A stretch of 61,757 nt of DNA from a virus. Taxonomy: Duplodnaviria > Caudoviricetes. The translations under genes and the position numbers were made by a program. A model generated the notes under the pieces. The model did no database searches. It was given only the letters and a program-made list of their open reading frames with translations, and had not been told where the DNA came from. Below are positions 1-43,808 of this stretch, in pieces (the first letter of the stretch is position 1; each line of letters begins with the position of its first letter). Location of the stretch: positions 1-61,757 of the IMG/VR virus record IMGVR_UViG_3300032289_001903; one strand, 5' to 3'.

Positions 1-423
1 AAAAAATGGACTATAAAAAACGGAATCAAACAAACAGTAACACGTTTCGACGCTATCAAAAAACAAATATTCACACCTATTACATGTCCTAACTGCAATA
101 AACCAATGACAAAAGGTCATTTTGATAAATATATGTTTAAAATACACCAGAAATGTTCTGATTGTGTAATTGATTATGAAACTAAACTAAAGGTTAGAGG
201 CGAATACAAGGAATATGAACAAAACATGATTAAACAGGGCGTTGCATACCATATCAAAGAAATGGAAAACGTGTTGCTAGAATTACTCATGGGTCAATCT
301 GGCGAATCATACGTTACTGAAGCGGGTGACATTGAAGAATGGAAAGGTAAAAGTCTTGACAATCAATTTATACAAGATATACAAGAATACATCCAAAAAC
401 TCAAGGATGCCATGAATGCATAA
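1..423 (+). CDS. Zn-finger (CxxC...CxxC) phage protein, 5'-truncated by window edge
   Basis: Frame is open from base 1 (KKWTIKNGIKQ...TCPNCNKPM...KCSDC), so the track start at 106 is internal. Confidence 0.6.
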   Translation, partial: KKWTIKNGIKQTVTRFDAIKKQIFTPITCPNCNKPMTKGHFDKYMFKIHQKCSDCVIDYETKLKVRGEYKEYEQNMIKQGVAYHIKEMENVLLELLMGQSGESYVTEAGDIEEWKGKSLDNQFIQDIQEYIQKLKDAMNA

Positions 424-430
424 TATTTAT
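423..430 (+). promoter_or_regulatory. ATATTTAT putative late promoter (first of ~21 copies at gene boundaries)
   Basis: Same octamer at 423, 6762, 14421, 16669, 18804, 20726, 25045, 25625, 29444, 33116, 40396, 40856, 41287, 44692, 45529, 47705, 48298, 49353, 52086, 59757, 60188, nearly always shortly upstream of an ATG. Confidence 0.65.
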
Positions 431-463
431 TGGTAATAATTTACACAATAATTCTTAAATATT

Positions 464-748
464 ATGGATAGTAACATTTGGTCAGTATTAATCACAGCAA
501 TAACAGTTTTGGGTGGTACTACAGCTTTCCGCTATTATGAGAAAAGAGCAATGAATAGAGAACGTGATGATGATTTTATTCGTCACGACTGCAAAGATCG
601 TATCTCTAAATTAGAAGCATTATTAGAAGCATCTTCTAGAGAAAAAGATGATTTACGTAACTTAGTGTTGAAATTAACATCAGAAGTAGCAGAACTACGT
701 GTTAAAGTTGATTTTTTATCTACTGAAAACGCTAAATTAAAAAAGTAA
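464..748 (+). CDS. Small membrane-anchored coiled-coil protein (holin-like possible)
   Basis: N-terminal hydrophobic segment WSVLITAITVLGG followed by a heptad coiled coil. Confidence 0.4.
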   Translation: MDSNIWSVLITAITVLGGTTAFRYYEKRAMNRERDDDFIRHDCKDRISKLEALLEASSREKDDLRNLVLKLTSEVAELRVKVDFLSTENAKLKK

Positions 749-756
749 TGTTTAAC

Positions 757-1344
757 ATGATTAAACTAATTAATTTATTATATGAAATTAATGAAGGAAC
801 CTGTGGTTACAACATAGATGCTAATACTAACAAAAAACTAAATACACCAGGTGGTTTAGAAGAGGCAGATCCTAAAACAGGCACTGGTAAAAAACCTAAA
901 GGATCCAGTCGTCGCTTATACACAGATGAAAATCCAAAAGATACTGTATCTATTAAATTTAAAACTAAAGAAGATATCGTTGATACATTAAATAAAGATT
1001 CATTTAAAGCTAAACCACATGCTCGTAAATCTCAGATTATTAATTTAATTCATCAACGTGTTAGAGCAGCATATGGTAAAGCTAAAGATCCTGAAGTTAA
1101 AAAACGTTTGAAACGTGCTTTAGATTACATTGAAGCGCGTAAAGAAACATCTAAAAGAAAAACTAAAACTTTAAATAAAGAAACAGCAGATCCTCAATCC
1201 GGCAAAGCAGCACCATATGGTTCCGGATATGCTCCTATACAACAGAACGAAGACATATTAAATGAAAAATGCTGGCCTGGATATACTAAAAAAGGAATGA
1301 AAACAATGTTTGGTAAAAAATATCCTAATTGTGTAAAAAAATAA
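757..1344 (+). CDS. Tagged modular putative head cargo protein (class I tag)
   Basis: Starts MIKLINLLYEINE (second ATG; 748 also possible). Basic modules are separated by LEE/NKE/LNE and it ends with KCWPGY...PNCVKK. Confidence 0.55.
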   Translation: MIKLINLLYEINEGTCGYNIDANTNKKLNTPGGLEEADPKTGTGKKPKGSSRRLYTDENPKDTVSIKFKTKEDIVDTLNKDSFKAKPHARKSQIINLIHQRVRAAYGKAKDPEVKKRLKRALDYIEARKETSKRKTKTLNKETADPQSGKAAPYGSGYAPIQQNEDILNEKCWPGYTKKGMKTMFGKKYPNCVKK

Positions 1345-1350
1345 AAAATA

Positions 1351-1671
1351 ATGATTAAATTAACTGATATACTAAACGAAGTAAAAGAAACATTTGAAAA
1401 TTTTGCTGTTACCCGTGGTAAAGGTGCTGCTAAAATAGCATCAACTGCTGAAGAAAAAGGTGGATTAGCATTATTAACGTGGCATCATTTCAAAGTAAAA
1501 GCTCCGTATTATAAAAAAGCCGAAGAAGGTAAATTTGATAAAGAAGCAGCTATAAAAGAATTTGAAAAAACACTAAAAAGCATATCATTAAATATGACTC
1601 AAATTGAATTTCAACGTGAAGTGGGTCGTATGGAAGTATTAGGCGAATTAATAATTCGAGATAAAAAATAA
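1351..1671 (+). CDS. Tagged putative head cargo protein (class I tag)
   Basis: MIKLTDILNE N-terminus. Confidence 0.55.
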   Translation: MIKLTDILNEVKETFENFAVTRGKGAAKIASTAEEKGGLALLTWHHFKVKAPYYKKAEEGKFDKEAAIKEFEKTLKSISLNMTQIEFQREVGRMEVLGELIIRDKK

Positions 1672-1672
1672 T

Positions 1673-2317
1673 ATGTTAAATGAAAATATACCATATTTTA
1701 AGTGTCTTATAAAAGAATCGTATTTTACTAAAAATCCTAAAGATTCTAATAAGTATCATAACGCTTATGCTTTTGGTATACAATCAATAATGGGTAAAAT
1801 ACTTACATTTCATATCATGACTGATTATGGAATGTTAAGATCTAGAGTACCAATATCTGAAATTTATCTACAAGAACCTAAAAAAGATTTGCCATTTTAC
1901 TACAAACAATTATGGGATTGTTTTGATAATGACGCGACAATAATAACTTATAGTTATTTAAAAGAAAAGAAATGTAAGGTTATATTAAGAGATAAAACAT
2001 ATGTTTGGGCTACATATTTATTTACAATAGACTGGCAAAATAACCCATACTCAGACGAACCTACTGACTACAAATGTGGACATGTATTAGCGGCTGATGA
2101 TGGATATTTAATGTGTATGCCAAATAATAGAATATTTTGGAAAGACTCTAATTGGATAACTAAAGAATTTCCAATAGAACCTAAAACTATAAAGGTAGAT
2201 ACAGAATTATTAGCTGTAGAATCAGTAGCAGATAGATGGGTATCTGAAGATACAGATTCTTTTTATTATGATATTAAAGAAATTAACAATGATAAAATTA
2301 TCAAAACTATTAAATGA
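1673..2317 (+). CDS. Phage protein of unknown function
   Basis: 214 aa ORF with globular composition (QLWDCF, YLFTIDW, KCGHVL, PNNRI), tightly packed in the operon. Confidence 0.6.
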   Translation: MLNENIPYFKCLIKESYFTKNPKDSNKYHNAYAFGIQSIMGKILTFHIMTDYGMLRSRVPISEIYLQEPKKDLPFYYKQLWDCFDNDATIITYSYLKEKKCKVILRDKTYVWATYLFTIDWQNNPYSDEPTDYKCGHVLAADDGYLMCMPNNRIFWKDSNWITKEFPIEPKTIKVDTELLAVESVADRWVSEDTDSFYYDIKEINNDKIIKTIK

Positions 2318-2876
2318 GAATGAAGTGGATTATTATGTAGACAGAGATGGAAATCAATTCCAAACTGTCGATGTAAATTATCTACAATACCCGGGCCTAG
2401 TAATGGTGAAATATGATGACGGGGAACCAGTGGAATACAAAGGTAATTTTGAAGCAGATTTAAAATCAGGTATGATTGAACGTTTAAAAAGTGAAATTGA
2501 TGAAGCCTTCTTCATTGGTGAAGATGACATAGAGGAATATGATGTTGTAAATGAACAAGACATTAAAGAATTTATTGAGTTCATGCGTGAATATCAACAA
2601 CAACTAAACGAGGCGGATTGTGATTGTTTATTAGAAGCCAAGTATCAAGGTCGTACTGTACCACTAGGTAAACCAATGAGAGGTGACAGTAAGAAATTTA
2701 AAGTATATGTTAAAAACCCTAAAACTGGTAAAGTTGTTAAAGTAAACTTCGGTGCTAAGGGAATGAATATAAAAAAGAACAATCCTGTAAGACGCAAAGC
2801 ATTTAGAGCAAGACACAATTGTGCTAACCCAGGACCACGTACTAAAGCTAGATACTGGTCTTGTAGAAAATGGTAA
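2289..2876 (+). CDS. Tagged modular putative head cargo protein with basic Cys-containing C-terminal module
   Basis: Start moved to MIKLSKLLNE at 2289. Acidic middle, then LLE|AKYQGR...FRARHNC...ARYWSCRKW. Confidence 0.6.
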   Translation: MIKLSKLLNENEVDYYVDRDGNQFQTVDVNYLQYPGLVMVKYDDGEPVEYKGNFEADLKSGMIERLKSEIDEAFFIGEDDIEEYDVVNEQDIKEFIEFMREYQQQLNEADCDCLLEAKYQGRTVPLGKPMRGDSKKFKVYVKNPKTGKVVKVNFGAKGMNIKKNNPVRRKAFRARHNCANPGPRTKARYWSCRKW

Positions 2877-2879
2877 ATC

Positions 2880-3491
2880 ATGATTAAACTAACAGACATA
2901 TTACTTGAAATGATGCTTGAGAAAAAAGCAGATCGTTGTAAGCGAATTGCTGATCGCAAATATGATAAACCATCTGCCTATAAATCAGGGGCTATTGTAC
3001 GTTGTCGCAAAGGTAATATATGGAAAGGTATTAAAGAAGATCAAATAAATGAATTAGGTGAAGGTGATTATCGTTACGAAGATATTTTAAAGTTTTTTGA
3101 TACAGCAGATAAAACAAAACAAAATAATATCTTAAATACAATTAATAATAATAAGCAATATAGTAATGATGAAAATATTAAAGATAGAGATGATTTAGAA
3201 AATTACATGAAGCAGTGGGAAAAAGAATATGCATCAGAAATATATAATGAATTATTTATTAACGAAGCAAAAAAAGAAACTCTCCGCACTTGGTTTAAAC
3301 GCAAAGGCGCTCCTGGTAAAACAGGTGGATGGGTTGATTGTAATACATGTCGCGAAGTAGATGGTAAAACCAAATGCAAACCTTGCGGCAGACAAAAAGG
3401 CGAAAAACGAGCAAAATACCCATCATGTCGCCCAACAGTATCAGCATGTAAGCAACCAGGTAAAGGTAAAAAATGGGGTAAAACAAAATGA
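2880..3491 (+). CDS. Tagged modular putative head cargo protein with two basic Cys-rich modules
   Basis: MIKLTDILLE; modules DRCKR...SAYKSGAIVRCRK and LRTWF...GGWVDC...KPCGR...YPSCRP separated by INE sites. Confidence 0.6.
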   Translation: MIKLTDILLEMMLEKKADRCKRIADRKYDKPSAYKSGAIVRCRKGNIWKGIKEDQINELGEGDYRYEDILKFFDTADKTKQNNILNTINNNKQYSNDENIKDRDDLENYMKQWEKEYASEIYNELFINEAKKETLRTWFKRKGAPGKTGGWVDCNTCREVDGKTKCKPCGRQKGEKRAKYPSCRPTVSACKQPGKGKKWGKTK

Positions 3492-4141
3492 TCAAATTAA
3501 TTGACATATTAAAAGAGGGCGCTTATGATTCTATGACTAGAAAAATAGTCACTGATATCATGAGAGAATGGAAAGACCAATATATGAACGAACCAGGTGA
3601 TTTGATATTTGATACTGATTATAATTTAACAGACGCTAAAGGTCGTAATTTTGAATTTGAATTATATGCTGTCCTAAGAGTAAAAAAATCACCAGGACAA
3701 AAATATATTGTTGATGGTGGTGTTGATCAATTAGAAGACCCTCCATATATGATAATTACATTTCAGGTTGATCCAAGAGATTTACCTCAAAAGTGGGAAG
3801 ATATATACTTTGATCTAATTGATGTTATTAGACATGAATTAGAACACTTTACTCAAGAAGGTATAAATGTTATTCCTTCTAAAGAAATGAATGATGATGA
3901 AATATTACGTGGTTTAATTAAGATGAAATTGGCTCCAAATACTGAATATTTTAAATTAGAAAAAGAGGTAGATGCTATGTTACAAGGTATGTATTTAAAA
4001 GCTAAAAAAACACGTACACCATTTAAAGATGTAATTAACGATTATTTTAATAAAGTAGGATTAAGAAAACAAGAAAGACAAGACATATTAGATGTGTGGT
4101 CTACTAGACTAAGAGCATTAAATTTACCCCCAATACAATGA
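3488..4141 (+). CDS. Tagged putative zincin-like metallopeptidase
   Basis: MIKLIDILKE tag; HELEH (HExxH) with downstream EVDA as candidate third ligand. Confidence 0.5.
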   Translation: MIKLIDILKEGAYDSMTRKIVTDIMREWKDQYMNEPGDLIFDTDYNLTDAKGRNFEFELYAVLRVKKSPGQKYIVDGGVDQLEDPPYMIITFQVDPRDLPQKWEDIYFDLIDVIRHELEHFTQEGINVIPSKEMNDDEILRGLIKMKLAPNTEYFKLEKEVDAMLQGMYLKAKKTRTPFKDVINDYFNKVGLRKQERQDILDVWSTRLRALNLPPIQ

Positions 4142-6762
4142 GAGCAATAGATAAATTCATATTACATGTAGTACATAACATTTTCCCTTTGAATGAATAT
4201 TCTGAGGGTGAATTAAAACGTTTAATGGCTCAATTTAGAGAAGAGGCGGACGATTTAAATATAAACATCAGTGATGATACATTAAAAACATATATCCAAC
4301 GTTTTGATGCTATTAAAAACTCACCTAAAATACCAGAAAAAGATTTACGTAAATATAGCTTATCTAAACTAATAAAATTAGTTACATCATCCGCAGGAGC
4401 AGAAGCACCAGATGATGAAGAAGATCAAACACCAGATGTTGTATACCAAGATGGTGGTAAGACAATATGGAATGGTTCTAAAGAAGGTAATTGTATTACA
4501 TATGGTGCTGGTGAAAAATGGTGTATAACTAGAGGATCATTTGGTAATTATCGTTATGATTCATCTAAAGGTTATCCAACATTCTATTTAGCTAAAAATG
4601 CTAATATGTCAGATAGCGATAAATTAAGTTTTGTTGCTATTCAAGTTAGAGACGTAGAGGATGAAAATAAAAAATATGTTTATACTAATAGACAAAATTC
4701 ACCATACGAATCATCTCCAATGTCTTTTAGTAAATTATCATCTGAAATACCTTGGTTAAATGATATTCCAAATATTAGAGGTATATTACGTTATATTCCT
4801 TTATCTAATCAAGAAAAAGTAACTCAAAAATATAAAAGAGATTCAATTAGTATTAGAGAATGGAATAAATTACCATTTAATGTTAAAAAACAATATTTGG
4901 TTATTAAGAAAAATAGTACATTATTTAATGATATTACTAACGATGTATTCGTATCTGATGTTTTACCACAATATCCCCAAATAGCGGAATTTATTGCAGT
5001 TACTCCTGGTATTGTAAAACCAGAACTTTTATTAAGAAATTTAGGCAAATTTAATAATCAAGATAGAAAATCTATAACAGCTAATTTACATGATAAAGTT
5101 GATTTAAAATGGCTTCCTTCTGAATTATTTCCATTTGATGTTAGGAAACTATTAACAGTATTAGATAAATGGAATCTTCCCGTTACTGATAGAATGTATG
5201 TTACAAAAAACGGTGAAGCTATAGTTAGATTAAAATTTGGAGATGACATATCTGTAGGCGTATATACAGCAGAAGACGATTATCCAAACATCAAATTAAA
5301 TCAACGTACAGCAAAATATCTACTTGATTACCCAGAACTAGATAAATTACCATTTAATGGCTTACTTAAACTAGCTACTGATGGTATTGTAAATAAAGAA
5401 TTTATTGATAAAGTTATTGATAAAGCTAAATCAGAAGAAAATTCAGCTATTATAGTTAAGAAAGTAGAAGATGGTGAAATATTAGTTGATGCTAATTCAT
5501 TTTCATCATATAAAATAAAAGATGGCAAAATAACCAAAGTACCATTTACTGATGAAGATGTACAAGCAGTATTAAGTGCTGAAAAAGATAATACATCCTT
5601 CCAACAAGGTGTTGTTAATATAGTTAAACAATCAGCAGATACCTATGAAAATCTCCCCCCAACTATTGATAAAGATGCTTTTGTATCTATTATAAAATCA
5701 ACTCCATATGATAATAGAACATTTTTTTCTCGTAATATAACTGGAGAACAAGTAATTCTTGTACCTGATGGAGAAAGTGAATATACTTTATTTACAAGAA
5801 CAATAGGAAGTCAAGGATTATATAATTTCAATGCATTAATGGATTATGGAAGAAGGGGTGATTGGAGAGATAGAGATACTAATGATAGTATGGATGAAGG
5901 AGCATGGAGATCTTATTTTAATTATTTAAGAAATGAAAATATAGTTTATGAAGGAAATCAATTACAACAATGGTTTAGAGGAGGATATGCTGTAGATGCT
6001 AAAAGGGCGTGGTTTAGAGCACAACCACCAATGTCTCCAACAGATCGATATGCCGTAGTAATAGGACCAAATGATGTTAATTATGTAGTAAATAAAGCTA
6101 ACCCAAGAGAATCACTTAAATTATCTGATTCAGGTAAATTAGTTAAAGCAAATATTCCTGTAGGAATGGCTCGTCAATTAACAGGTGCCACACCAGATGC
6201 CGCTACACCAGTAGCAGCCGCTGCTGCTACAGGTAGAAGAGGTAGACCAGCAGGTGTAGCTAATGCTCCACGTGCCGCGGCACCAGCAGCAGGAGGTGGT
6301 GATATAGGTGTAGCTGAAGTGATGGATGAAACGGGATTAACTAATGCTTTTATGCGTTTACCACGTGCTGATTATAGACGATTAAATGTAGATAATGCAA
6401 CACGTGTTGCTCCAAATGGTGATAGAGGTGCTGCACGTCGTAACAATCAATTAGGAGGAGCAGGTAGTGTAGGTCGAGTTATCAGTGTTGGTCCTAGTAA
6501 AATATATATTATTCGTTTAGCAAATCAACAAATAATTGCATCTATTAATATACAACCCGGTAATAGAAATTATATATTACTACCAGATGGTACAGCGGTA
6601 ACATTAAATTCACCATCTGACTTAATGCAGGCACTACAACGTCGTAATTTAGCTGAAGTACGTAATTATTTAGTACGTGAATACGTTGCTAATAATCCAC
6701 AACATTTAGATGAAGTACGTGAATTGATAAGACAACACGTTAATGAAACCACAAATCAATAA
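4138..6762 (+). CDS. Large putative internal virion protein (874 aa)
   Basis: N-terminal ...PLNE site, KWCIT motif, Ala-rich linker with AT-hook-like GRRGRP, C-terminal VRELIRQHVNE. Confidence 0.45.
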   Translation: MRAIDKFILHVVHNIFPLNEYSEGELKRLMAQFREEADDLNINISDDTLKTYIQRFDAIKNSPKIPEKDLRKYSLSKLIKLVTSSAGAEAPDDEEDQTPDVVYQDGGKTIWNGSKEGNCITYGAGEKWCITRGSFGNYRYDSSKGYPTFYLAKNANMSDSDKLSFVAIQVRDVEDENKKYVYTNRQNSPYESSPMSFSKLSSEIPWLNDIPNIRGILRYIPLSNQEKVTQKYKRDSISIREWNKLPFNVKKQYLVIKKNSTLFNDITNDVFVSDVLPQYPQIAEFIAVTPGIVKPELLLRNLGKFNNQDRKSITANLHDKVDLKWLPSELFPFDVRKLLTVLDKWNLPVTDRMYVTKNGEAIVRLKFGDDISVGVYTAEDDYPNIKLNQRTAKYLLDYPELDKLPFNGLLKLATDGIVNKEFIDKVIDKAKSEENSAIIVKKVEDGEILVDANSFSSYKIKDGKITKVPFTDEDVQAVLSAEKDNTSFQQGVVNIVKQSADTYENLPPTIDKDAFVSIIKSTPYDNRTFFSRNITGEQVILVPDGESEYTLFTRTIGSQGLYNFNALMDYGRRGDWRDRDTNDSMDEGAWRSYFNYLRNENIVYEGNQLQQWFRGGYAVDAKRAWFRAQPPMSPTDRYAVVIGPNDVNYVVNKANPRESLKLSDSGKLVKANIPVGMARQLTGATPDAATPVAAAAATGRRGRPAGVANAPRAAAPAAGGGDIGVAEVMDETGLTNAFMRLPRADYRRLNVDNATRVAPNGDRGAARRNNQLGGAGSVGRVISVGPSKIYIIRLANQQIIASINIQPGNRNYILLPDGTAVTLNSPSDLMQALQRRNLAEVRNYLVREYVANNPQHLDEVRELIRQHVNETTNQ

Positions 6763-6789
6763 TATTTATACATATAAACATAAAAAACA

Positions 6790-7344
6790 ATGAACCAATT
6801 CGCATTACGTCTATTCGTACGTAGCTTAATAAATGAAGCTAAAGAAACTAAAGATAAAGAACCAAAGAAAACAGTAAAAAAAGAAGCTGAAGAAAAAGCT
6901 CCTAAAAGCTCTGGCAAATTAGTTGATCTTAAAAAAGAATTAGCTGCTCTTAAGCAATATAAAGATGAATTAATGGTTGCTAAATTTGCTGAAAAAACAG
7001 CTGAAACTGAAGTTGAATTTGCTAATTTAGCTAAATTTGCTAAAGAATTAGATAAACTTAAAGCGGGTGGTGTTGCATTAGAAGCGAGTATTGATGAACA
7101 AATCAAAACCCTTGAAGATAAAATCTCAGCTGAGAAAGATAAGATTAAAGAAATGATGGGTTTAGTTCCTGAAGCTGGACAAAAGGAAATGGTAGATGAA
7201 AAAAAGAAAATGACATCTGCTCAAAAAAATAAAAAAGAAGATATCGTTAAAGGTATGAAAAAATCAGGTAGCTTTGGTAAGTCTAAAGAAGATAAAAGTG
7301 AAATGTATGCAACAGCTACTAAGTTAGCTACTAAAAAGAAATAA
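6790..7344 (+). CDS. Tagged coiled-coil/basic putative head protein (class II tag)
   Basis: LRLFVRSLINE N-terminus; C-terminal basic module KKEDIVKGMKK...MYATATKLA. Confidence 0.5.
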   Translation: MNQFALRLFVRSLINEAKETKDKEPKKTVKKEAEEKAPKSSGKLVDLKKELAALKQYKDELMVAKFAEKTAETEVEFANLAKFAKELDKLKAGGVALEASIDEQIKTLEDKISAEKDKIKEMMGLVPEAGQKEMVDEKKKMTSAQKNKKEDIVKGMKKSGSFGKSKEDKSEMYATATKLATKKK

Positions 7345-7346
7345 TA

Positions 7347-7721
7347 ATGGAAAACGAAATAATAGGTCAATTCATATCAACTTTGTTTGCATCACGCACA
7401 CAAGCTCATGTATTCCATCTTCAGACACCATCATTTGCTGCTCATAAAGCATTGAATGATTATTACGATGAAATCGTAGGCATAACTGATGGAATAGCAG
7501 AATCATATCAAGGTAAATATGGTATTATTACTGGATATGGTAATATTGCATTACAAGAATACCAAAGCTGTGAAGCAATAATTATGTTTTTTGAAACGCT
7601 TTGTATGTATGTTGAAAAAAGTAGACAAATGCTTCCACAAGATTCATACCTTCAAAACCAAATTGATGAAATTGTTGCTTTAATTAAATCTACAATATAT
7701 AAATTACGCTTTTTAAAATGA
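7347..7721 (+). CDS. Dps/ferritin-like four-helix protein
   Basis: HVFHLQT..SFAAHKALNDYYD...DGIAE pattern resembles Dps ferroxidase residues. Confidence 0.6.
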   Translation: MENEIIGQFISTLFASRTQAHVFHLQTPSFAAHKALNDYYDEIVGITDGIAESYQGKYGIITGYGNIALQEYQSCEAIIMFFETLCMYVEKSRQMLPQDSYLQNQIDEIVALIKSTIYKLRFLK

Positions 7722-8587
7722 TAAAATTACTTGATATATTAAACGAAGGTCCACAAATTGGTAAACGTCCTGTAAGAACATATAAACTTGTTCAAGGAAA
7801 AGAAGCTGAATTAGATAAAATAAAAAATTCTAAAGTAGTAGATTATATTAAAAAGAATCCTGAAAATATAAATATAGAAGATTTAGCTAAATTTCTTTCT
7901 GTACGAGAGCAAGTTGCTTTACAATTTATAAATGCCCTAAAACAAGTAGGAGCTTTAGTATCAAAAGATGGTACTACTAGTAAACCTATGAGTAGTGATG
8001 ATGTTGATGATTTATTTAAAGAAGCTACATTCACTAGTAAGTATGATGATAGTCCTAAATTAAAAGGTAAACAAACTAAATTACCTGATGAATTACAAGC
8101 TAAACTTGTTAAAGAAGGTGATGATCACGAAGTGGCAATGGCACAAGCTAGTTTAAAATCAATTATTAAATCAGCTGCTCAACTAATGAATAAATTAGGA
8201 ATGATGGAGCGTGATATACCAGGTTGGATTCAAGACCATATTACAAATGCTGAAAACTATATTGACCAAGCTGCTCAAGGTTTTCATGAATTAAATCATA
8301 ATGAAATGAATGAACAATTAAAAAGATTACAAGAATTAGCTAATGTTAAAGAAGCATTTTCTAATAAAGATGAGAGTGTATATCAAGATTTTATAAAACT
8401 TGATGGGGAATCAAAACTTAAATTCTTTGGTAAAATTAGAGATTGGTATAAGACAGCGAGTGACCCTGCAGTTAAAGCAGGATTACCAAAACAAAAAATA
8501 GTAGGGGCTATTAATAGCTTTATGGACGAGTATGGTTCTTATGTTAAAAAAGGAGAAGATGAAGGAGATAAATATGATTTCTCGTAA
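7718..8587 (+). CDS. Tagged modular putative head cargo polyprotein
   Basis: MIKLLDILNE tag; internal FKE/VKE/MNE junctions; internal KRLQELAN class III-like motif. Confidence 0.55.
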   Translation: MIKLLDILNEGPQIGKRPVRTYKLVQGKEAELDKIKNSKVVDYIKKNPENINIEDLAKFLSVREQVALQFINALKQVGALVSKDGTTSKPMSSDDVDDLFKEATFTSKYDDSPKLKGKQTKLPDELQAKLVKEGDDHEVAMAQASLKSIIKSAAQLMNKLGMMERDIPGWIQDHITNAENYIDQAAQGFHELNHNEMNEQLKRLQELANVKEAFSNKDESVYQDFIKLDGESKLKFFGKIRDWYKTASDPAVKAGLPKQKIVGAINSFMDEYGSYVKKGEDEGDKYDFS

Positions 8588-8610
8588 TAAAATAAACAAC
8601 AATAATAACA

Positions 8611-16680: not shown

Positions 16681-17211
16681 ATGGGTATGTCAACTAAAAT
16701 ATATTTAGTAGAAAATATAGAACCTGGTACTAACAAAGTTTATATAGGTAAAACTAAAAATAACGATAGGTACTATGGTCATCAATCTAAATATGGTTTA
16801 CAAATACAATATACTATAATAGATGAAATTAATTCATTAAATCATAGTGATTGGGAACCATTAGAAACATATTGGATTGAACAATTTAAACAATGGGGAT
16901 TTGAGGTAATAAATAAACGCAAAAAAGGTGGAAGTGGTCCAATATCTCATACTACTGAAACAAAACAAAAAATACGCAAAGGTAAAATAGGTCATGAGTG
17001 TTACTCTAATATAGAAAGAGGTAATAAAATTAGTAAAGCTTTACAAAATCATTCAAAACATTACACTGAAGAAATAATTCAAAAGATGAAAAAACCAAAA
17101 CCTAAAGATTTTGGTGAAAGAATAAGTAAAGCTTTAAAAGGTAGATCACGTCCTGATATAAAAGGTAGAGTAAGCCCTAATAAAGGTAAAACAAAGAAAA
17201 ATGAACAATAA
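16681..17211 (+). mobile_element. Free-standing GIY-YIG homing endonuclease with NUMOD3-like repeats
   Basis: KIYLV...VYIGKT, conserved E and N, then HTTETKQKI and KISKALKG-type repeats. Confidence 0.8.
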
Positions 17212-18796
17212 CAATAATCAACAGATAAAGGATATAATAAAGCAAGAATATATAAAATGCTTTCAAGATCCAATCCATTTTTTCCGCAAATATTGTTACA
17301 TCACTCACCCGGTTAAAGGTAGAGTATTATTCCATTTATACCCATTCCAAGAAGACACATTAAGAGAATTTAGAGCAAATCGTTTTTCTATTGTAAATAA
17401 ATCACGTCAGTTAGGTATCTCTACTCTAGTAGCAGGATACGCTTTATGGACAATGATATTTAATAAAGATAAAACAGTACTTTGTATAGCAACAAAACAA
17501 GAAACCGCTAAAGGTATGGTTGAAAAAGTACAATTCATGTATAATAATTTACCAGCTTGGTTACGCGGTAATCAAAAACCAATATCAGATAATAAGTTAT
17601 CACTCAAACTAGCAAATAACTCTCAAATTGTAGCAACATCAGCTGCATCAGATGCAGGTAGATCTTACGCCGTATCTTTATTATTAATAGATGAGGCTGC
17701 GTTTATTGAAGGTATTGATAAAATATATACAAGTATTAAACCAACAATTGCTACGGGTGGAGGAATTATAGCACTATCATCTCCAAATGGTATTGGTAAC
17801 TGGTTCCATAAAATGTATACTGAAGCTCAAATTGGTAAAAATGACTTTAAAGCAATAGAGTTAAAATGGAATTTACATCCTGATAGAGTAGCACCAATAG
17901 ATGCAGGGTGGGAAGATCGTGAACGTGCAAATATGTCACCACGTGAATTTGCTCAAGAATATGATTGTGACTTTTTAGGATCAGGTAATTCAGTAATTGA
18001 ACCAGATAATTTATCATTTTATGAACAAACATATATACAAGAGCCTGTTGAACGTCGGTTCATGGGCGGCGATTTTTGGATTTGGAATTATCCTGATTAT
18101 AGCCGTAACTATATCATCAGTGCTGACGTTGCTCGTGGAGACGGTTCGGATTACTCAGCGTTTCATGTTATCGATGTCGAATCGTGTGAGCAAGTTGCTG
18201 AATATAAATCTCAGATAGGAACAAGGGAATTTGGTCATATGTTAGTATCTGTTGCAACTGAGTATAACAACGCTTTATTAGTCCCTGAAAACGCTAATAT
18301 CGGTTGGGATGTTATTAATACCATCATCGAGAAAGGTTATCAAAATTTATATTATTCTCCACGCGCTTATGGCGAAATGAATATTGATAAATGGATGGCT
18401 AAGATGGACAGTGAACAAACAGTACCCGGATTTACAAACTCTCAAAAAACAAGACCACTTGTTATCTCAAAAATGGAGTCGTATATTAGAGATAGACATT
18501 TTATCTTTCGCTCTAAGCGCTTACTAGAGGAATTACGTGTATTCATTTGGAATCATGGTAAAGCACAAGCACAAAACGGATATAATGATGATTTGGTAAT
18601 GGCTTTAGGAATTGGATTATTTACTAGAGATACTGGTGTTAAATTTCACCAACAAGGTATGGATATAACTAGAAAATCTATTGATAATATATCTAGTACA
18701 TCTCAAGGTTATACACCAAGGATGCTAAATGGTATACCAAATCCATACCAAATAGATACTCCATATGGTACTGAAGATATTACATGGATACTATAA
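17201..18796 (+). CDS. terL: Terminase large subunit (T4 gp17-like)
   Basis: LYPFQ, KSRQLGIS Walker A, LLLIDEAAF Walker B, SSPNG, FAQEYDCDF, ADVARG..DYS and DDLVMA nuclease motifs. Confidence 0.95.
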   Translation: MNNNNNQQIKDIIKQEYIKCFQDPIHFFRKYCYITHPVKGRVLFHLYPFQEDTLREFRANRFSIVNKSRQLGISTLVAGYALWTMIFNKDKTVLCIATKQETAKGMVEKVQFMYNNLPAWLRGNQKPISDNKLSLKLANNSQIVATSAASDAGRSYAVSLLLIDEAAFIEGIDKIYTSIKPTIATGGGIIALSSPNGIGNWFHKMYTEAQIGKNDFKAIELKWNLHPDRVAPIDAGWEDRERANMSPREFAQEYDCDFLGSGNSVIEPDNLSFYEQTYIQEPVERRFMGGDFWIWNYPDYSRNYIISADVARGDGSDYSAFHVIDVESCEQVAEYKSQIGTREFGHMLVSVATEYNNALLVPENANIGWDVINTIIEKGYQNLYYSPRAYGEMNIDKWMAKMDSEQTVPGFTNSQKTRPLVISKMESYIRDRHFIFRSKRLLEELRVFIWNHGKAQAQNGYNDDLVMALGIGLFTRDTGVKFHQQGMDITRKSIDNISSTSQGYTPRMLNGIPNPYQIDTPYGTEDITWIL

Positions 18797-18828: not shown

Positions 18829-20718
18829 ATGGCTGAACAAAATACAGGATTATTTACTCGATTAAAACGTTTATTTAGTACTGATGTAGTAATCAGAAAT
18901 ATAGGCGGTGATCAACTAAGAACAATAGACGTTGATAGAATACAAGCATATGGTAATGTAAAAACCAATGCTCTTATAGATAGATTCACTAAGTTACACA
19001 GATATGGCGCTAATATGCCATATAACCCAACGATGAATTATCAAACACTTCGTATTCAGTTATATACTGACTATGAAGCAATGGATACTGAATCAATCAT
19101 CGCTTCTGCACTTGATATCATTGCTGATGAATCTACACTTAAAAATGAAACACAAGAAGTAATACAAATTAGATCAGCAGACGAAAATATTCAACGTATA
19201 CTTTATAATTTATTTTATGATGTATTAAATATAGAATTTAATCTATGGTTATGGATTAGAAATATGTGTAAGTATGGTGATTTCTATTTACATCTAGAAA
19301 TAGCTGAAAAATTTGGTGTATATAATGTAACACCATTGTCAGTTTATGATATGGTTCGTGAAGAAGGTATGGATCCTCAAAATCCATCTTACGTTTGTTT
19401 TAAAATTGATCCAATGGTTATTGCAGCTGGTGGTATCAACTCACGTGTTAAAGATAGAGATGGTAAGATTAAATTTGAAAACTACGAAATAGCTCACTTT
19501 AGGTTATTAACTGATGCTAACTACCTTCCTTATGGTAGATCATATATAGAACCAGCTCGTAAAACATACAAACAGTATGTGTTGATGAAGGATGCAATGT
19601 TGCTCCATCGTATAACTCGTGCCCCGGAAAAACGTGTGTTTTATGTTGATATTGGAAACATGCCACCAAATGAGGTTGATGGGTACATGGAACGTTTAAA
19701 GCAAAAAATGCAAAAAACTCCATATATTGATAAACATACAGGTGAATACAATTTGAAGTATAATATGATGAACGTGATGGAAGATTTTTATATTCCTCAA
19801 CGTGGTGCATCATCAAATACTAAAATTGATACAATCAAAGGATTAGAATATAATGCAATTGATGACGTAAACTTCTTACGTGATGAAATGTTAGCTGCAC
19901 TTAAAGTACCTAAAGCATTCTTTGGCTTTGAAAAAGATTTGACTGGTAAAGCTACATTAGCTGCTGAAGATATTCGTTTCGCTCGTACAGTAGAACGTAT
20001 CCAACGTATTGCATTATCTGAATTGTATAAAATTGCATTAGTACATTTATACACACAAGGATTTGATGGTGCTTCATTAGCTAATTTTGAATTATCATTA
20101 ACTGTTCCATCTATAATCTATGAACAAGAAAAGATAGCATTATGGAAGGAAAAAATTTCATTAGCTAAAGATATGCAAGATACTAAATTAATATCTTCCG
20201 ATTGGATTTATGATAATATATTCCAATTTAGTGAAGATCAATATGATGATATAAGAGATTTAGTAACTGAAGATATGAAACGTACTTTCCGCTTATCACA
20301 AATTGAAAATGAAGGTAATGACCCAGCTAAATCAGGTAAATCATACGGTACACCACATGATCTAGCATCATTATATGGTAAAGGCAGAGCAGGTATGAAT
20401 GTAGATGGACCTATCCCTCCAGGGTATAATGAAAAACGCTCAGTTGGTCGTCCTGAAGAAAAAGCATCTATAGTTGGTACACAAAAAGACCCATTAGGTA
20501 AAGATAGATTAGGTAGTAAAGAAAATGGCACATTATATACCGCAAATATTCCTGATGAAGGAAGTGGTACACCAAAAAGCTATGGTGCTTTAGCATTAGC
20601 TGAATCACTACGCTTTAAAGATATGTTAAAATCTATACCAAGAGAAGGCAAACAAATGGTGTTTGAAACAGAACAGGAATCTTCATTATTAGATGAAAAA
20701 AATATTAAGGACATATAA
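18829..20718 (+). CDS. gp20: Portal protein (T4 gp20-like)
   Basis: ALDIIADE, YGD..LH, DAML.HR..RAPEKRVFYVD.GN.P, EDFYIP.RG, ALKVP; directly after terL. Confidence 0.93.
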   Translation: MAEQNTGLFTRLKRLFSTDVVIRNIGGDQLRTIDVDRIQAYGNVKTNALIDRFTKLHRYGANMPYNPTMNYQTLRIQLYTDYEAMDTESIIASALDIIADESTLKNETQEVIQIRSADENIQRILYNLFYDVLNIEFNLWLWIRNMCKYGDFYLHLEIAEKFGVYNVTPLSVYDMVREEGMDPQNPSYVCFKIDPMVIAAGGINSRVKDRDGKIKFENYEIAHFRLLTDANYLPYGRSYIEPARKTYKQYVLMKDAMLLHRITRAPEKRVFYVDIGNMPPNEVDGYMERLKQKMQKTPYIDKHTGEYNLKYNMMNVMEDFYIPQRGASSNTKIDTIKGLEYNAIDDVNFLRDEMLAALKVPKAFFGFEKDLTGKATLAAEDIRFARTVERIQRIALSELYKIALVHLYTQGFDGASLANFELSLTVPSIIYEQEKIALWKEKISLAKDMQDTKLISSDWIYDNIFQFSEDQYDDIRDLVTEDMKRTFRLSQIENEGNDPAKSGKSYGTPHDLASLYGKGRAGMNVDGPIPPGYNEKRSVGRPEEKASIVGTQKDPLGKDRLGSKENGTLYTANIPDEGSGTPKSYGALALAESLRFKDMLKSIPREGKQMVFETEQESSLLDEKNIKDI

Positions 20719-20754: not shown

Positions 20755-21609
20755 ATGAAAATAAAACATAGCAAATTTAAAAATACTGGTATATTATTTG
20801 AATTACTAGTAAGACAAGTCGCATCAGATACTGTATCTGGTAAAGACTCTGCAGCTATTAATTTAATTAGAAAATATTTTTCCAATTCAGAATTGGCTAA
20901 GGAACATAAATTATACCAAGCTTTAATTGGCTCAAAAGCACTAACTGAAGGTAAAGCTGAATCGCTAATTAATGCAACTCTTGAAATATCTTCACGTTTA
21001 AATCGTTCTGCATTACGCAAAGAAAAATACAATATTATTAAAGATATTCGTGAATCTTACGATTTAGAAGAATTTTTTAAATCAAAGATTAATAATTATT
21101 CACAATACGCTGCGGCATTCAATTTAATTGAAGCACATAACTCACTAGAATTTATTGAACCATCTCAGGTTATTGAAAATAAAGTAAATTTACTTGAACA
21201 TATTACACGTAAAGAAGTTAATAAAGAAGATGTTACTGATCGTGTAATGGAAGAATATATGAGTATGGATAAAGGTACACGTATCTTAGTATATAGAACA
21301 TTACTTGAAAGATTTAATAGTAAATATAGTAATATGTCTAATACACAAAAATCTGTGTTGAAAGAATATATTAATAATATATCTAATACTGTTAAATTAC
21401 GTGAATTTGTTAATAATCATTTTGCTGCTATTAGAGCGGAATTAAACAAAATGAACAAAACAGTAACAGATAAAACTACTCAGATTAAAATAAATGAGGT
21501 AGTAAATATACTAAAGCCACTTGATAAAAATCAAAACGTAAAAGATGATAATATCATGGCTTTATTACAATTCCATCAGTTAATAGCAGAATTAAAATCA
21601 GTAAAGTAA
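20755..21609 (+). CDS. Head morphogenesis-region protein (helical)
   Basis: KHSKFKNTGILFELL start; lies between portal and protease. Confidence 0.5.
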   Translation: MKIKHSKFKNTGILFELLVRQVASDTVSGKDSAAINLIRKYFSNSELAKEHKLYQALIGSKALTEGKAESLINATLEISSRLNRSALRKEKYNIIKDIRESYDLEEFFKSKINNYSQYAAAFNLIEAHNSLEFIEPSQVIENKVNLLEHITRKEVNKEDVTDRVMEEYMSMDKGTRILVYRTLLERFNSKYSNMSNTQKSVLKEYINNISNTVKLREFVNNHFAAIRAELNKMNKTVTDKTTQIKINEVVNILKPLDKNQNVKDDNIMALLQFHQLIAELKSVK

Positions 21610-22268
21610 TGACTTTAAAAGAGTATATTAAACAACTTACACAAGAAGTACTAGATGAAATGTCTACGTCAGGTGGTGCTGGTGGTTATTTAAGCCCAAT
21701 GGCTTTTTCCCCTAAAGGACAAGGTAAAAACGCAGCAACAAAATATGCTGAAAAAGAAGGTTGGAAAGTAACTAAAGGTGAAACTACAATGCCTGGTGAC
21801 TCTAAAGTAAAAGATTATGTATCATTAACAGGTAAAAAGAAAAAGAAAATAAAAATATACCAGGAAAGTGGGTATGATCAACCATCACAATATGGAGCAG
21901 CATCTAAATACGGAGCAGCATCACCATATAGTGCTGCATCTAAATATGGCGCTGCAAGTGATTATACAAAAAACGAATCACTAATTGATATTGTTAAAGA
22001 AGAATTACTTAACGAAGTAACATACCATAAATTTAAAAACGAAGTTAAATTTCGTACTAAAAACGAACAACTCCACAAAGCAATACGTGAAGTAAAACGT
22101 AAATTAATGGAAATTGATCGTATTGTTGAATATACATCTCGTATGAAGCAAGAATTAAGCGAAGGTGAAGAAGGATTAAAATATTGGAAAAAAACAGAAA
22201 GTAACATCTCAACAATATCAGAAATGGTAAACCATTTAAATAATAAAATTAAAAATCTTAATCAATAA
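21609..22268 (+). CDS. Tagged modular putative head protein with hexapeptide repeat
   Basis: MTLKEYIKQLTQEVLDE|MSTSGGAGGY; YGAASx repeats; C-terminal coiled coil. Confidence 0.5.
   Translation: MTLKEYIKQLTQEVLDEMSTSGGAGGYLSPMAFSPKGQGKNAATKYAEKEGWKVTKGETTMPGDSKVKDYVSLTGKKKKKIKIYQESGYDQPSQYGAASKYGAASPYSAASKYGAASDYTKNESLIDIVKEELLNEVTYHKFKNEVKFRTKNEQLHKAIREVKRKLMEIDRIVEYTSRMKQELSEGEEGLKYWKKTESNISTISEMVNHLNNKIKNLNQ
21873..21965 (+). repeat. 5 x 18-bp imperfect tandem repeat (Y-x-x-x-S-x)
   Basis: YDQPSQ YGAASK YGAASP YSAASK YGAASD Y. Confidence 0.85.
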
Positions 22269-24421: not shown

Positions 24422-25045
24422 ATGAAACAACTTTTAATAGATCATATCCCCTTTAAAGTAGCCAAACTAACACTTAACGAAAGTAAGTCATCTAGCGGTC
24501 GTATGGTACTAGAAGGTAAACTACAAGCAGCTGACACCAAAAATGGTAACGGCCGTGTTTACCCTAAAGATATATTAAATAGAGAAATCGAAAAATATAT
24601 TAAAGGACCAGTAGCAAACAACAATGCTATGGGAGAATTAGATCATCCAGAAGCATCTATCATCAATTTAGCAAACGTATCACACAATATCACTAAAGTA
24701 TGGTGGGAAGGTGATGATGTAATGGGTAGATTAACACTACTTAATACACCATCAGGTAAAATTGCAATGGAATTAGTAAGCGCTGGAATACCATTAGGTA
24801 TATCATCACGCGGTATGGGTTCTGTTAAGCAATTAGGTGAAACAGTTGAAGTACAAGACGATTTTGAGTTGCTCTGCTGGGACCTTGTAAGTGTACCTTC
24901 AACTCCCGAGGCATATATGCACCCTGTAGGTAAATTAGGTGCTATGAACGAGAGCAAACAATATAAAACTAAAGACTACAGCAAGGTAAACTCACTCATT
25001 ACAGAAATAATATGCAGTCAGATGGGTGTCTGTCCACTATGCTAA
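24422..25045 (+). CDS. gp21: Prohead maturation protease (T4 gp21-like)
   Basis: NGNGRVYP, GELDHP (His), GISSRGMGS (Ser), WDLVSVPS. Confidence 0.93.
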   Translation: MKQLLIDHIPFKVAKLTLNESKSSSGRMVLEGKLQAADTKNGNGRVYPKDILNREIEKYIKGPVANNNAMGELDHPEASIINLANVSHNITKVWWEGDDVMGRLTLLNTPSGKIAMELVSAGIPLGISSRGMGSVKQLGETVEVQDDFELLCWDLVSVPSTPEAYMHPVGKLGAMNESKQYKTKDYSKVNSLITEIICSQMGVCPLC

Positions 25046-25750: not shown

Positions 25751-26989
25751 ATGGACAACAAAAACTTATTTAAAGAGGCTATCGCCGACGCAAAAGCCGT
25801 TCGCGAAGCAGCGTTAGCAAACGCAAAAGCCGCTCTAGAAGAGGCACTAACTCCAAAATTGCAATCTATGTTAGCTGCAAAGCTACAAGAAATGGATTAC
25901 GATGAAGCAGTTGATGATGCTGAAGAGGCAGAAGATGAAGTAGATGAAATGGAAGAAGGATTTTTATCATCTCACGAAGAAAACAGCGATGTAAATCTTG
26001 ATTTCAATTTAGAAGAAGATTTCGATTTATCTGAAATTTTAGCTGAATTAGATGAAGAAAATTCACTAGAAGAAGCTAAAAAAGAAAAAGATGAAAAGAA
26101 AAAGAAAATGATGAAAGAAGCTGAAGAAGAAGAAGAAGAAGAAGAAGAAACGGAAGAAGAATCTGAAGACGTTGCTGATATGTCTGTTGAAGATTTGAAA
26201 GCTCTTATCAAAGACATCGTTGCTCAAGAAATGGGTAATGAAGAAGGTGATGAAGAAGCTGGAGAAGAAATGTCAATGGATATGGGTGGCGAAGAAGAAT
26301 CTGACGAAATTGATCTTAACGAATTATTAGCTGAACTTGACGCTTTAGGCGAAGGTGATGGTGATGAACTTGAAGAAATTGATATCGTAGGTGGTATTAA
26401 AAAAGGTCTTAAAAAAGCAGGTCAGGCTATTACTGGTGCTGCCGCAAGAGCTAAGTATGTTGTAGGAGCTACTCCTGAAGATACTAAAGGTGCTTTAGGC
26501 TTGAACTTGTCAGCTAAACAAGTATTTGATATCGTAAAGGCTAACTACGAAAAAAGAACAGGTAAAACAGGCGAACCTAGCGATGCTTATAAAAGTTTAG
26601 TTACTGCAAAAGCACAAGGATTTGATTCTACAGGCGGAGAAATGTCAGAAGCAATTCGTACAATCAATACTCTTCGTAATGAATTAAATGAAGTTAACTT
26701 GCTAAACGCTAAGTTGCTTTATGTTAATAAAATCTTCAAAGCTAAGAATTTATCTGAATCACAAAAATTAAAAGTTATTGCTTCATTTGATAAAGCAACT
26801 ACAGCTAAAGAAGCTAAAGTTGTATTCGAATCATTGAACAATACTTTAACTACCGCTGCTCCTAAACAAGCAATAAAAGAATCTATTGGATTCGCTTCAA
26901 GAGCTGCTGGTGTTGCACCTAAAAAAGCAATCGTTGAAACAAACGATGCAATTACTAGAATGCAAAAACTCGCAAACATTATTAAATAA
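25751..26989 (+). CDS. Prohead scaffold/core protein (T4 gp22-like role)
   Basis: Very acidic coiled coil between protease and MCP; many LxE sites; C-terminal ITRMQKLANIIK. Confidence 0.8.
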   Translation: MDNKNLFKEAIADAKAVREAALANAKAALEEALTPKLQSMLAAKLQEMDYDEAVDDAEEAEDEVDEMEEGFLSSHEENSDVNLDFNLEEDFDLSEILAELDEENSLEEAKKEKDEKKKKMMKEAEEEEEEEEETEEESEDVADMSVEDLKALIKDIVAQEMGNEEGDEEAGEEMSMDMGGEEESDEIDLNELLAELDALGEGDGDELEEIDIVGGIKKGLKKAGQAITGAAARAKYVVGATPEDTKGALGLNLSAKQVFDIVKANYEKRTGKTGEPSDAYKSLVTAKAQGFDSTGGEMSEAIRTINTLRNELNEVNLLNAKLLYVNKIFKAKNLSESQKLKVIASFDKATTAKEAKVVFESLNNTLTTAAPKQAIKESIGFASRAAGVAPKKAIVETNDAITRMQKLANIIK

Positions 26990-42900: not shown

Positions 42901-42901
42901 A

Positions 42902-43804: not shown

Positions 43805-43808
43805 TAAT

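Follow-up and report, generated by a model that had tools for sequence, protein, structure and literature searches.

Why do several small and otherwise unrelated proteins of one phage begin with the same ten-residue peptide and continue as a mosaic of basic and acidic segments? The question is raised by the IMG/VR record IMGVR_UViG_3300032289_001903, the whole of which (61,757 nt, hereafter the window; the contig is rated 37% complete) was analysed, and in particular by three open reading frames (ORFs) near its start, called 757, 2289 and 2880 after their first nucleotides. A first-pass annotation had read them as polyproteins, from which a prohead protease would release peptides of 20-100 aa, supposed DNA-condensing or host-takeover effectors, at Glu-ending sites. 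The strings it quoted from the three ORFs lie exactly where it had placed them, and their coordinates, lengths and charges were derived anew. We propose that the ORFs encode precursors of capsid-internal proteins, in which the leader is a capsid address removed by an S77-family prohead protease and the internal junctions are cut as well; this joint claim is the reading we favour and consider fairly likely. The leader as an address that is removed by the protease is, by analogy with phage T4, probable in its own right. For the internal junctions as further sites, which would free basic modules and shred acidic spacers, the balance tips in favour. The proposal builds on five direct observations: the proteins share a leader and are composed of modules, relatives exchange these modules, a junction motif is conserved, and the precursor form occurs together with an S77 protease. 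All 70 ORFs retained in the window lie on the + strand, to which the window coordinates below refer.

The leader, MIKLxxILxE, opens eight ORFs of the window (757, 1351, 2289, 2880, 3488, 7718, 30655 and 31534) and is a short peptide of about ten residues common to otherwise unrelated proteins of one phage. With 23 further copies from six related IMG/VR loci, which share 66-89% identity with the window in an adjoining 874-aa gene, 31 tags in 25 distinct DNA versions give the consensus M-I-K-L-x-x-[IL]-[LI]-x-E, where positions 5, 6 and 9 vary. The constancy of L4, [IL]7, [LI]8 and E10 among the 31 tags is partly built in, because the search pattern itself demanded these residues. Homologue alignments that were not selected on the tag have Leu at leader position P3 in 106/112 rows and Glu at P1, the residue before the candidate cut, in 108/112. 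Codons vary silently at I2, K3, L4, L8 and E10 (ATT/ATA/ATC, AAA/AAG, CTA/TTA, GAA/GAG), and the mean pairwise DNA identity is 0.73 across the tag versus 0.35 across the 30 nt upstream. Silent-site variation next to unrelated upstream DNA therefore argues that the peptide is selected and not a DNA cassette.

The layout of the leader coincides with that of the T4 capsid targeting sequence (CTS), a peptide of 10 residues given as MKTYQEFIAE (PMC8442874), while the sequences differ. As described for T4, CTS residues 4 and 7 determine targeting, residues 8 (aliphatic) and 10 (Glu) determine processing, and Asp in position 10 prevents processing (PMC9026906). The genome also holds the other components expected of a CTS-type system, a gp21-family prohead protease and a scaffolding core. 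The gp21-type prohead serine protease (24422-25045) matches Pfam Peptidase_S77 (E 6.5e-33) and phrog_207 (2.8e-55) and is presumed to be the processing enzyme for the tagged precursors. The scaffold-like acidic protein (25751-26989, net -51), an assignment from position and composition only, contains 21 [LIVM]xE sites, or 22 with Phe allowed at P3. Next to it, the gp23-type major capsid protein (27014-28678, Pfam E 3.3e-77) has a candidate maturation site, LVTE|A (aa 56-59, nt 27179-27190), upstream of its conserved VSVQPMN core; the equivalent in Flavobacterium phage vB_FspM_immuto (hereafter immuto) is IVSE|A. Presumably, LVTE|A falls roughly where T4 gp23 is cut.

Homologous cargo also bears alternative leaders, all of which end in [IL]xE right before the conserved part. 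The DUF5872 protein of immuto has ...IIKEILSE|KKADRC in place of the MMLE|KKADRC of the window, and the homologues of ORF 2289 in two related loci start with MKLKELIKQIIKESINE (L002) and MKLNKLKEIIKEAISE (L003), where the window starts with MIKLSKLLNE. This bears on the alternative that the MIKL leader is no capsid address, but a translation-start context, another sorting signal or a recombination handle, and that the ORFs are ordinary cytoplasmic multi-domain proteins. The first codons are indeed rich in A/T, as the translation-start variant, with a host that lacks Shine-Dalgarno sites, would have it, and some tagged relatives are enzymes (the P-loop kinase-like ORF in L002, L003 and L005). 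T4, however, is described as packaging an enzyme too, Alt. Synonymous variation around fixed residues 4, 7, 8 and 10 without conservation of the upstream DNA, retention of the sequence when it is internal and lacks its Met (P0243, P0248), the common [IL]xE ending of different leaders on homologous cargo, and a precursor form that tracks the S77 protease (see below) all speak against a role of this kind, which we regard as quite improbable.

Leaders occur in further arrangements. In some metagenomic homologues (P0243, P0248, P0183, P0161, P0261) the leader is internal, with an acidic domain of ~85-105 aa fused upstream, and Ser replaces its Met (...LKE|SIKLTDILFE|...). P0177 joins two complete DUF5872 units, the second of which keeps its own leader. 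The window has at least two further leader types ending in [IL]xE, at ORFs 6790, 8611, 12087, 14427, 16236, 21609, 22409, 25077 and 60221: an amphipathic M(T/K)x(x)ELRxLIRExxxE, and (R/K)(M/F)Q(Q/K)LAGLIxE, often followed by QLNE. Several of these ORFs sit in the head gene block, from portal to capsid protein. Judged by such patterns, ~17 of the 70 window ORFs, the MIKL set included, may carry propeptides. The MIKL leader of the kinase-like protein (Pfam Zeta_toxin/AAA_33, E 3e-9) is found at L002 2385-3140, L003 2563-3318 and L005 5429-6184; in L002, a long protein that opens with a cytidylyltransferase-like GxFxPxHxGH motif (3137-5590) adjoins it. Since the leader stands on such kinase-like, cytidylyltransferase-neighbouring proteins, enzymes may be cargo too.

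Are the junctions behind the leader used as well? ORF 2289 (2289-2876; the longest ORF begins at 2268) is the simplest of the three. Its leader MIKLSKLLNE (2289-2318) is followed by an acidic pro-region of 106 aa (2319-2636, net -22), which holds 10 [LIVMF]xE sites and the motif EAFFIGE and ends in LLE, and by a 79-aa basic module (AKYQGR...YWSCRKW, 2637-2873, net +23, 2 Cys), which matches phrog_7595 and weakly resembles DUF5754/Tlr6F. When the ORF was compared with GenBank phages by tblastn, only the last ~80 residues were matched, in 27 records. Six viruses without S77 encode the module as a stand-alone protein (Met-Ala-x-Tyr-x-Gly-[RK]): the Pelagibacter phages Aegir (a siphophage), HTVC111P, HTVC026P and HTVC106P (podophages), Roseobacter phage CRP-901 and a Nitrosopumilaceae spindle-shaped virus. 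These proteins begin at the position that follows LLE in ORF 2289. HTVC008M, C48C1, Melnitz-3 and immuto have the module at the C-terminus of a longer protein, after LEE, LTE, MME or LDE, and a six-frame PF03420 search found an S77 protease in exactly these four and in none of 8 other records, which include CRP-6 and HTVC033P besides the six stand-alone carriers. Seventeen IMG/VR records have the precursor form. S77 is present in 11 of them, including all 4 that are rated >=90% complete, while the completeness of the 6 records without it is rated 2-24%.

The same junction recurs on a much larger scale. When 1.84 billion cluster representatives were searched by phmmer for the 79-aa module, 3778 matched at E <= 0.001, and among the best 150 of these the module is at the extreme C-terminus in nearly all, after 22-685 aa of mostly unrelated sequence. 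A regular expression parsed 140 of the 150, with Glu at P1 in 137, L/V/I/M at P3 in 133 (Thr in 7) and Ala at P1', the residue after the candidate cut, in 137. A MAFFT alignment of 150 rows (the window ORF and 149 of the best 150) has Glu at P1 in 147/150, L/V/I/M at P3 in 142/150 and Ala at P1' in 147/150; [LVIM]-x-E|A is thus present in about 95%, with columns P2 and P4 variable. The module holds no Glu-ending site of its own. By ad hoc patterns, the leaders among the 150 comprise 5 of MIKL type, 19 near the T4 form (e.g. MKTFKDYLSE) and 10 of the form MK[IL]x[DEQ][IL]xxE. A structural model of ORF 2289 from the 150-row alignment predicts two hairpins and two helices with pLDDT about 90 for residues 116-195 and a helix at 89-110; residues 1-16 and 25-43 fall below 50. 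No fold or family match gives the function of the module: Foldseek of this model against the PDB returned no match at E <= 0.001 (best rows at E about 1, including Cren7 and integrase C-terminal domains), and VIA-align over 48,161 chains reached a best Z of 2.3, so that no fold could be assigned.

The resemblance of the 79-aa module to DUF5754 (PF19058), which is equated with Tlr6F (PMC12220804), is a lead only: it scores 14.9-17 bits over the hairpin region (gathering threshold 27.4). Among 19 proteins scanned with PF19058, 3 gave sub-threshold matches, none of them one of the 6 stand-alone phage proteins; precomputed PF19058 annotation is on 0 of the 120 listed close short homologues, and in one nearby Atlas cluster 25% of the members are so annotated. 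Almost every polinton-like virus is said to conserve Tlr6F, its role being open since 2015, and one virophage study is cited for a few Tlr6F peptides in particles, below threshold.

Two phages carry the 79-aa module in further contexts. Roseobacter phage CRP-6 has no S77 protease; in its gp55 (L023 638-1327) the module precedes, as an N-terminal fusion, an XkdF-type putative prohead protease domain (Pfam S78_2, 7.2e-18). We count this fusion as support, since it would tie the module to the capsid. Gene 18 of Melnitz-3 (L020), a cultured T4-like Methylophilales phage, encodes a long precursor with, among other pieces, a CW..NCV piece and a DUF5824 domain (1.1e-17), ending in MME|SEYQGK and the basic module. 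The EAFFIGE motif of the pro-region (2502-2522) has copies at L002 8839, L003 7472, L005 9753, L025 2507 and L026 2537, where it follows a Glu site in different precursors: after the leader, after the DUF5872 N-half or inside the ORF 2289 spacer. We discarded the idea of a linker frozen at the DNA level, as silent sites vary (7 DNA versions in 8 copies), and regard EAFFIGE as a feature of the peptide.

ORF 757 (757-1344, 195 aa; alternative ATG at 748) strings together more pieces. The leader MIKLINLLYE (757-786), a candidate CTS followed by INE, precedes a 23-aa GTCGY...GGLEE mini-module (796-864) with a conserved L-x-E junction. Module A (ADPK...LNKE, 865-1182, aa 37-142; 106 aa, net +17) follows, then the linker TADPQSGKAAPYGSGY...ILNE (TADPQ...ILNE, 1183-1266; 28 aa, net -3, predicted disordered), and last a CW..NC[VI] mini-module (KCWPGY...NCVKK, 1267-1341; 25 aa, +8, 2 Cys), a predicted beta-hairpin. 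Both ends of module A agree to within about three residues with those of gp40 of Pelagibacter podophage HTVC033P, a stand-alone protein of 96 aa, and the linker element recurs between the DUF5872 halves in immuto. Across the 120 listed homologues of ORF 757, the GTCGY piece follows the leader as in the window, is absent (P0308, P0311) or is relocated directly ahead of the CW module (...VKKE|GTCGY...GGLNE|KCW in P0368 and P0377). A Zn-ribbon piece (CxxCGWxW...CHKC) is inserted ahead of the CW module in six of them and is also present in relatives of ORF 2289 (P0001, L002). The CW module is optional, being missing from several listed homologues; it occurs in 33/150 ORF 2289-type precursors, at positions 8-407, with a site within 4 residues after it in 31/33. 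P0350 has a ParB-like insert, and one ~185-aa domain is inserted both in P0383 of this family and between the DUF5872 halves in L003.

Two junctions of ORF 757 follow the pattern of ORF 2289. At E36, P3 is Leu in 116/121 and P1 Glu in 115/121 rows, with mixed P2; at E170, the counts are Leu 102/105 and Glu 104/105 non-gap rows. The ORF 757 model (121 rows, mean pLDDT 55) predicts helices at 71-142 (about 70) and a hairpin at 176-194 (about 80), with values <50 at residues 1-47, 52-66 and 141-168. Like the ORF 2289 model, it looks like a set of ordered modules with low-confidence linkers and not like a single domain.

ORF 2880 (2880-3491) is built differently. Its leader MIKLTDILLE with a second site, MMLE (2880-2921), is followed by a basic piece of 39 aa (2922-3038, +10, 2 Cys), a variable acidic insert of 76 aa that ends in INE (3039-3266, -10) and a second basic piece of 74 aa (3267-3488, +18, 6 Cys). 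By way of insert-free orthologues, the basic pieces can be identified as the N- and C-half of one Pfam family, DUF5872 (PF19197). The window ORF itself scores 21.2 bits, over aa 16-53 only (gathering threshold 27.5), while the insert-free 133-aa orthologue L005:9603-10004 reaches 31 bits over aa 13-119, above 27.5; precomputed PF19197 is on most of the 120 listed homologues. In all 119 of these that could be parsed, the halves are collinear, 6-221 aa apart, so that ORF 2880 is a fixed two-piece frame with a variable insert and not a product of free assortment. The inserts include GNAT-like (P0199), ParB-like (P0203) and other pieces, at times an entire enzyme-like domain. Directly ahead of the C-half stands [LI]xE (E129; P3 L/I and P1 Glu each in 115/116 non-gap rows, P2 mixed). 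A complex prediction of N-half and C-half scored 0.00, which is uninformative either way.

The first-pass annotation had expected modules, searched separately, to reappear in other orders or with other partners and with boundaries at xxE, and it named full-length homologues that are always collinear, or proteins that fold as single domains, as evidence to the contrary. The modules do reappear, with different partners and positions or alone, bounded by [LIVM]xE, and neither modelled ORF looks like a single domain. Its picture of mix-and-match precursors holds for ORFs 757 and 2289, whose modules recur with other partners, in other positions and alone, and fails for ORF 2880, whose DUF5872 halves show just the constant collinearity that it had named.

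In our view the strong evidence for cutting is comparative: P3 and P1 are conserved at the junctions where P2 and P4 vary, and module boundaries coincide with the ends of stand-alone homologues. Several points weigh against the proposal. Site density is a weak and unspecific argument. In whole-protein shuffles (300 per protein, motif [LIVM]xE), observed versus expected sites are 10/3.5 for ORF 2289, with 0/300 shuffles as high, and 6/2.5 for ORF 2880 (p=0.023), but only 4/1.9 for ORF 757 (p=0.11); the window as a whole has 341/268, and the untagged ferredoxin-like ORF 1673, with 7/2.6, is equally enriched. Insertion and deletion boundaries fall within +/-3 residues of sites in 27/48 cases versus 6.2 expected and in 76/105 versus 15.7 expected. 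Exact coincidence is low, because gaps slide between similar xxE ends, and we give the enrichment little weight, since the events reuse a few insertion points. The column counts for ORFs 757 and 2880 are not independent events either, as the homologues are mostly 60-90% identical to the window proteins. The junction at E142 of ORF 757 (NKE|T) lacks a hydrophobic P3 and is counted against cutting: Glu is present in 121/121 rows, P3 is Asn in 103, and Leu stands at P4 in 120/121. No leader was recognised by the ad hoc patterns in 31/150 ORF 2289-type precursors. The conserved LxE-Ala of ORF 2289 could be partly structural, because residues 116-119 are modelled as a strand at the edge of the module, and the DUF5872 halves, which never separate, would fit one loop-inserted protein as well as two peptides. 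Finally, the searches made found no virion proteome or N-terminal sequence for this phage or its relatives.

One alternative keeps the leader as a capsid-targeting propeptide that is cut off but leaves the internal junctions uncut, and multi-domain chains with flexible acidic linkers would remain in the head. Release of cargo at several sites has no precedent in T4, as the T4 internal proteins are described as cut only once, beside the CTS. This single cut, the collinear DUF5872 halves, the predicted strand at the ORF 2289 junction and the fact that Glu-rich linkers make xxE common all agree with uncut chains. Less easily accommodated are the conservation of P3 and P1 with varying P2 and P4 at three junctions, stand-alone homologues that begin exactly at P1' and the nearly constant last place in the chain of a 79-aa module with no Glu-ending site of its own. 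Moreover, a retained pro-region of -22 would cancel the +23 of the module. We consider uncut chains unlikely.

If the junctions are cut, the prohead protease need not be the enzyme. Processing could fall to a zincin-type metallopeptidase, with the tagged ORF 3488 or HExxH domains in relatives as candidates. ORF 3488 (3488-4141, leader MIKLIDILKE, 217 aa), which is conserved beside the variable locus, contains HELEH (nt 3833-3847), and a local alignment matches it to the HExxH region of P0019 (E 0.02 in a single comparison); P0019 in turn has weak Pfam matches to DUF3920 (1.2e-5) and Peptidase_M76 (4.9e-4). In polyvalent proteins, an embedded metallopeptidase is believed to do the cutting (PMC5512222). 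ORF 3488 may be a packaged metallopeptidase, yet at E up to 5 it matches no credible Pfam peptidase family, M16_C appearing only at chance level. ORFs 757, 2289 and 2880 hold no peptidase domain, and the junction motif, Glu at P1 with an aliphatic P3, is the rule reported for gp21-type enzymes. A metallopeptidase as the processing enzyme appears very improbable.

Cutting by the S77 protease, our preferred reading, suggests the following course of events. As the layout implies, the leader would act like the T4 CTS, its hydrophobic residues 4 and 7 docking the precursor on the scaffolding core, and the gp21-type protease (24422-25045) would cut the leader off at a site made up of Leu8 and Glu10. 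The conservation of the junctions among relatives suggests that the same enzyme would then cleave at internal [LIVM]-x-E. Small, strongly basic, Cys-containing modules would be freed and the acidic spacers broken down to short peptides, which would escape from the head like the scaffold fragments of T4. Until then the acidic parts may roughly offset the charge of the basic modules (-22 versus +23 in ORF 2289). More speculatively, the freed modules, whose charge suggests DNA binding, might accompany the packaged DNA, first in the head and then into the host.

The remaining tagged ORFs are simpler. ORF 1351 (1351-1671, MIKLTDILNE, 106 aa) is a single module whose immuto homologue has the leader MRLLELLRE. 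ORF 30655 (30655-30993, MIKLSNILLE, 112 aa) lies in the structural gene block, and ORF 31534 (31534-31860, MIKLTNLLNE) encodes 108 aa. ORF 7718 (7718-8587, MIKLLDILNE, 289 aa) had been credited with the pattern of the three precursors, together with ORFs 21609 and 22743; it does have the tag but no basic or Cys modules, and its counterparts at the same position in relatives are mosaic, while 21609 and 22743 have other leaders, no Cys and larger segments. The head-block protein 21609-22268 shares its first ~70 aa, after an ...EVL(D/E)E|MST leader, with a 73-aa immuto protein and continues for ~140 aa, including (K/P)YGAAS-type repeats.

By its gene content, the source of the window is an uncultured far-T4-like myophage with a G+C content of ~30-33%. 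Pfam and PHROG identify a T4-type large terminase (17201-18796), a gp20 portal (18829-20718, E 2.5e-69), PhoH, tail sheath, tail tube, baseplate parts and gp32. By capsid protein, the nearest named phage is immuto (59% aa), followed by Microcystis phage Mel-JY01 (48%) and Rhodothermus phage RM378 (37%); no DNA near-identical to window positions 1-8600 was found among GenBank phages. Between conserved flanking genes, the sets of tagged ORFs differ from one relative to another, much as reported for the variable internal-protein loci of T-even phages. A T4-like late promoter, TATAAATA, was considered as a common upstream element and dropped, since its 4 matches in the window precede none of the tagged ORFs of the locus. 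ORF 16681-17211, directly upstream of the terminase gene and overlapping it, matches the homing-endonuclease family phrog_314 (E 5.3e-6). At 41950-44660 lie three tandem paralogues (316, 300 and 283 aa; Pfam Gly_rich_2) with near-identical ends, ...GGRGGDGL.II.T, which coincide with the sole G+C spike of the window (0.44 at 42001-44000).

A wider and more doubtful idea, to which we give rather less than an even chance, is that the DUF5872 halves, the Tlr6F/DUF5754-like 79-aa module, the DUF5824 piece of Melnitz and the CW..NCV hairpin are virion-core, DNA-associated mini-domains, some of them common to giant viruses, polinton-like viruses, archaeal spindle viruses and phages. Marine T4-like phages might have captured them into a cassette system. 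By means of an exchangeable capsid address, an acidic pro-region that masks charge and sites for the prohead protease, any mix of such peptides, with whole enzymes inserted between them, could be loaded into the head and released in it. The T4 CTS is a textbook device, known from a few proteins of a single group of phages. The phages described here seem to apply its logic to a large repertoire that is shuffled fast: a third of one genome contains at least 8 tagged genes, and metagenomes contain precursor clusters by the thousand. Confirmation of cutting would reveal the way in which T4-like phages abundant in the sea and in fresh water package many small DNA-binding peptides and enzymes along with their genome and release them, and the leader together with [LIVM]xE|A would become a sequence rule that predicts injected cargo from metagenomes. 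Widespread viral 'DUF' mini-proteins, possibly Tlr6F among them, would gain a testable role; a true relationship of the 79-aa module to Tlr6F would provide the first functional context for the latter. The cultured relatives immuto, Melnitz and HTVC008M make such testing practical.

How does the system compare with known ones? Our literature search, which left most subscription journals outside its coverage, returned no account of modular tagged precursors of this kind. The available descriptions present DUF5872 and DUF5754/Tlr6F solely as small proteins that stand alone, in giant viruses, polinton-like viruses and phages. In the window they follow a leader of capsid type, acidic spacers and sites of protease type, with a link to DUF5754 that stays below threshold. 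With the polyvalent proteins (Iyer et al. 2017, PMC5512222), which are described as unrelated domains in one chain, extensively shuffled and thought to travel with the DNA and be cut, the precursors share their architecture, and some relatives carry ParB-like, GNAT-like and HExxH pieces. Polyvalent proteins, however, are portrayed as large, with enzymatic conflict domains and an embedded zincin-like peptidase, while the window ORFs have ~200 aa and junctions that fit a prohead protease acting in trans. ORFs 757, 2289 and 2880 contain no zincin-like metallopeptidase or other hallmark conflict domain; only the adjoining ORF 3488 has a bare HExxH.

Another parallel is found in the processed head proteins and inner-body or ejection proteins of the giant phages phiKZ, 201phi2-1 and SPN3US, where long propeptides with several Glu-ending sites and the processing of many head proteins by a gp21 relative have been described, and where the propeptide fragments are thought small enough to clear the capsid. 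Their reported motif, S/A/G-x-E or A-x-E (PMC5694885), differs from the [LIVM]-x-E found here, and their cargo consists of large proteins with no shared 10-residue leader of this kind, in contrast to the basic modules of 25-106 aa in the window. The closest match is with T4 itself. Like IPI, IPII, IPIII and Alt, the precursors combine a 10-residue leader, conserved at positions 4 and 7 with an aliphatic residue 8 and Glu 10, with unrelated cargo; the phage also resembles T4 in encoding a gp21-family S77 protease, in having basic cargo and in a locus that changes from one close relative to the next. The leader sequence is not that of T4, and 37% of a genome already provides at least 8 tagged genes, where T4 has a handful. 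Where the T4 internal proteins are described as cut once, the cargo here, known from genes alone, consists of several tiny modules with long acidic pro-regions and internal sites. Taken together, we infer that these precursors represent a variant of T4 internal-protein processing.

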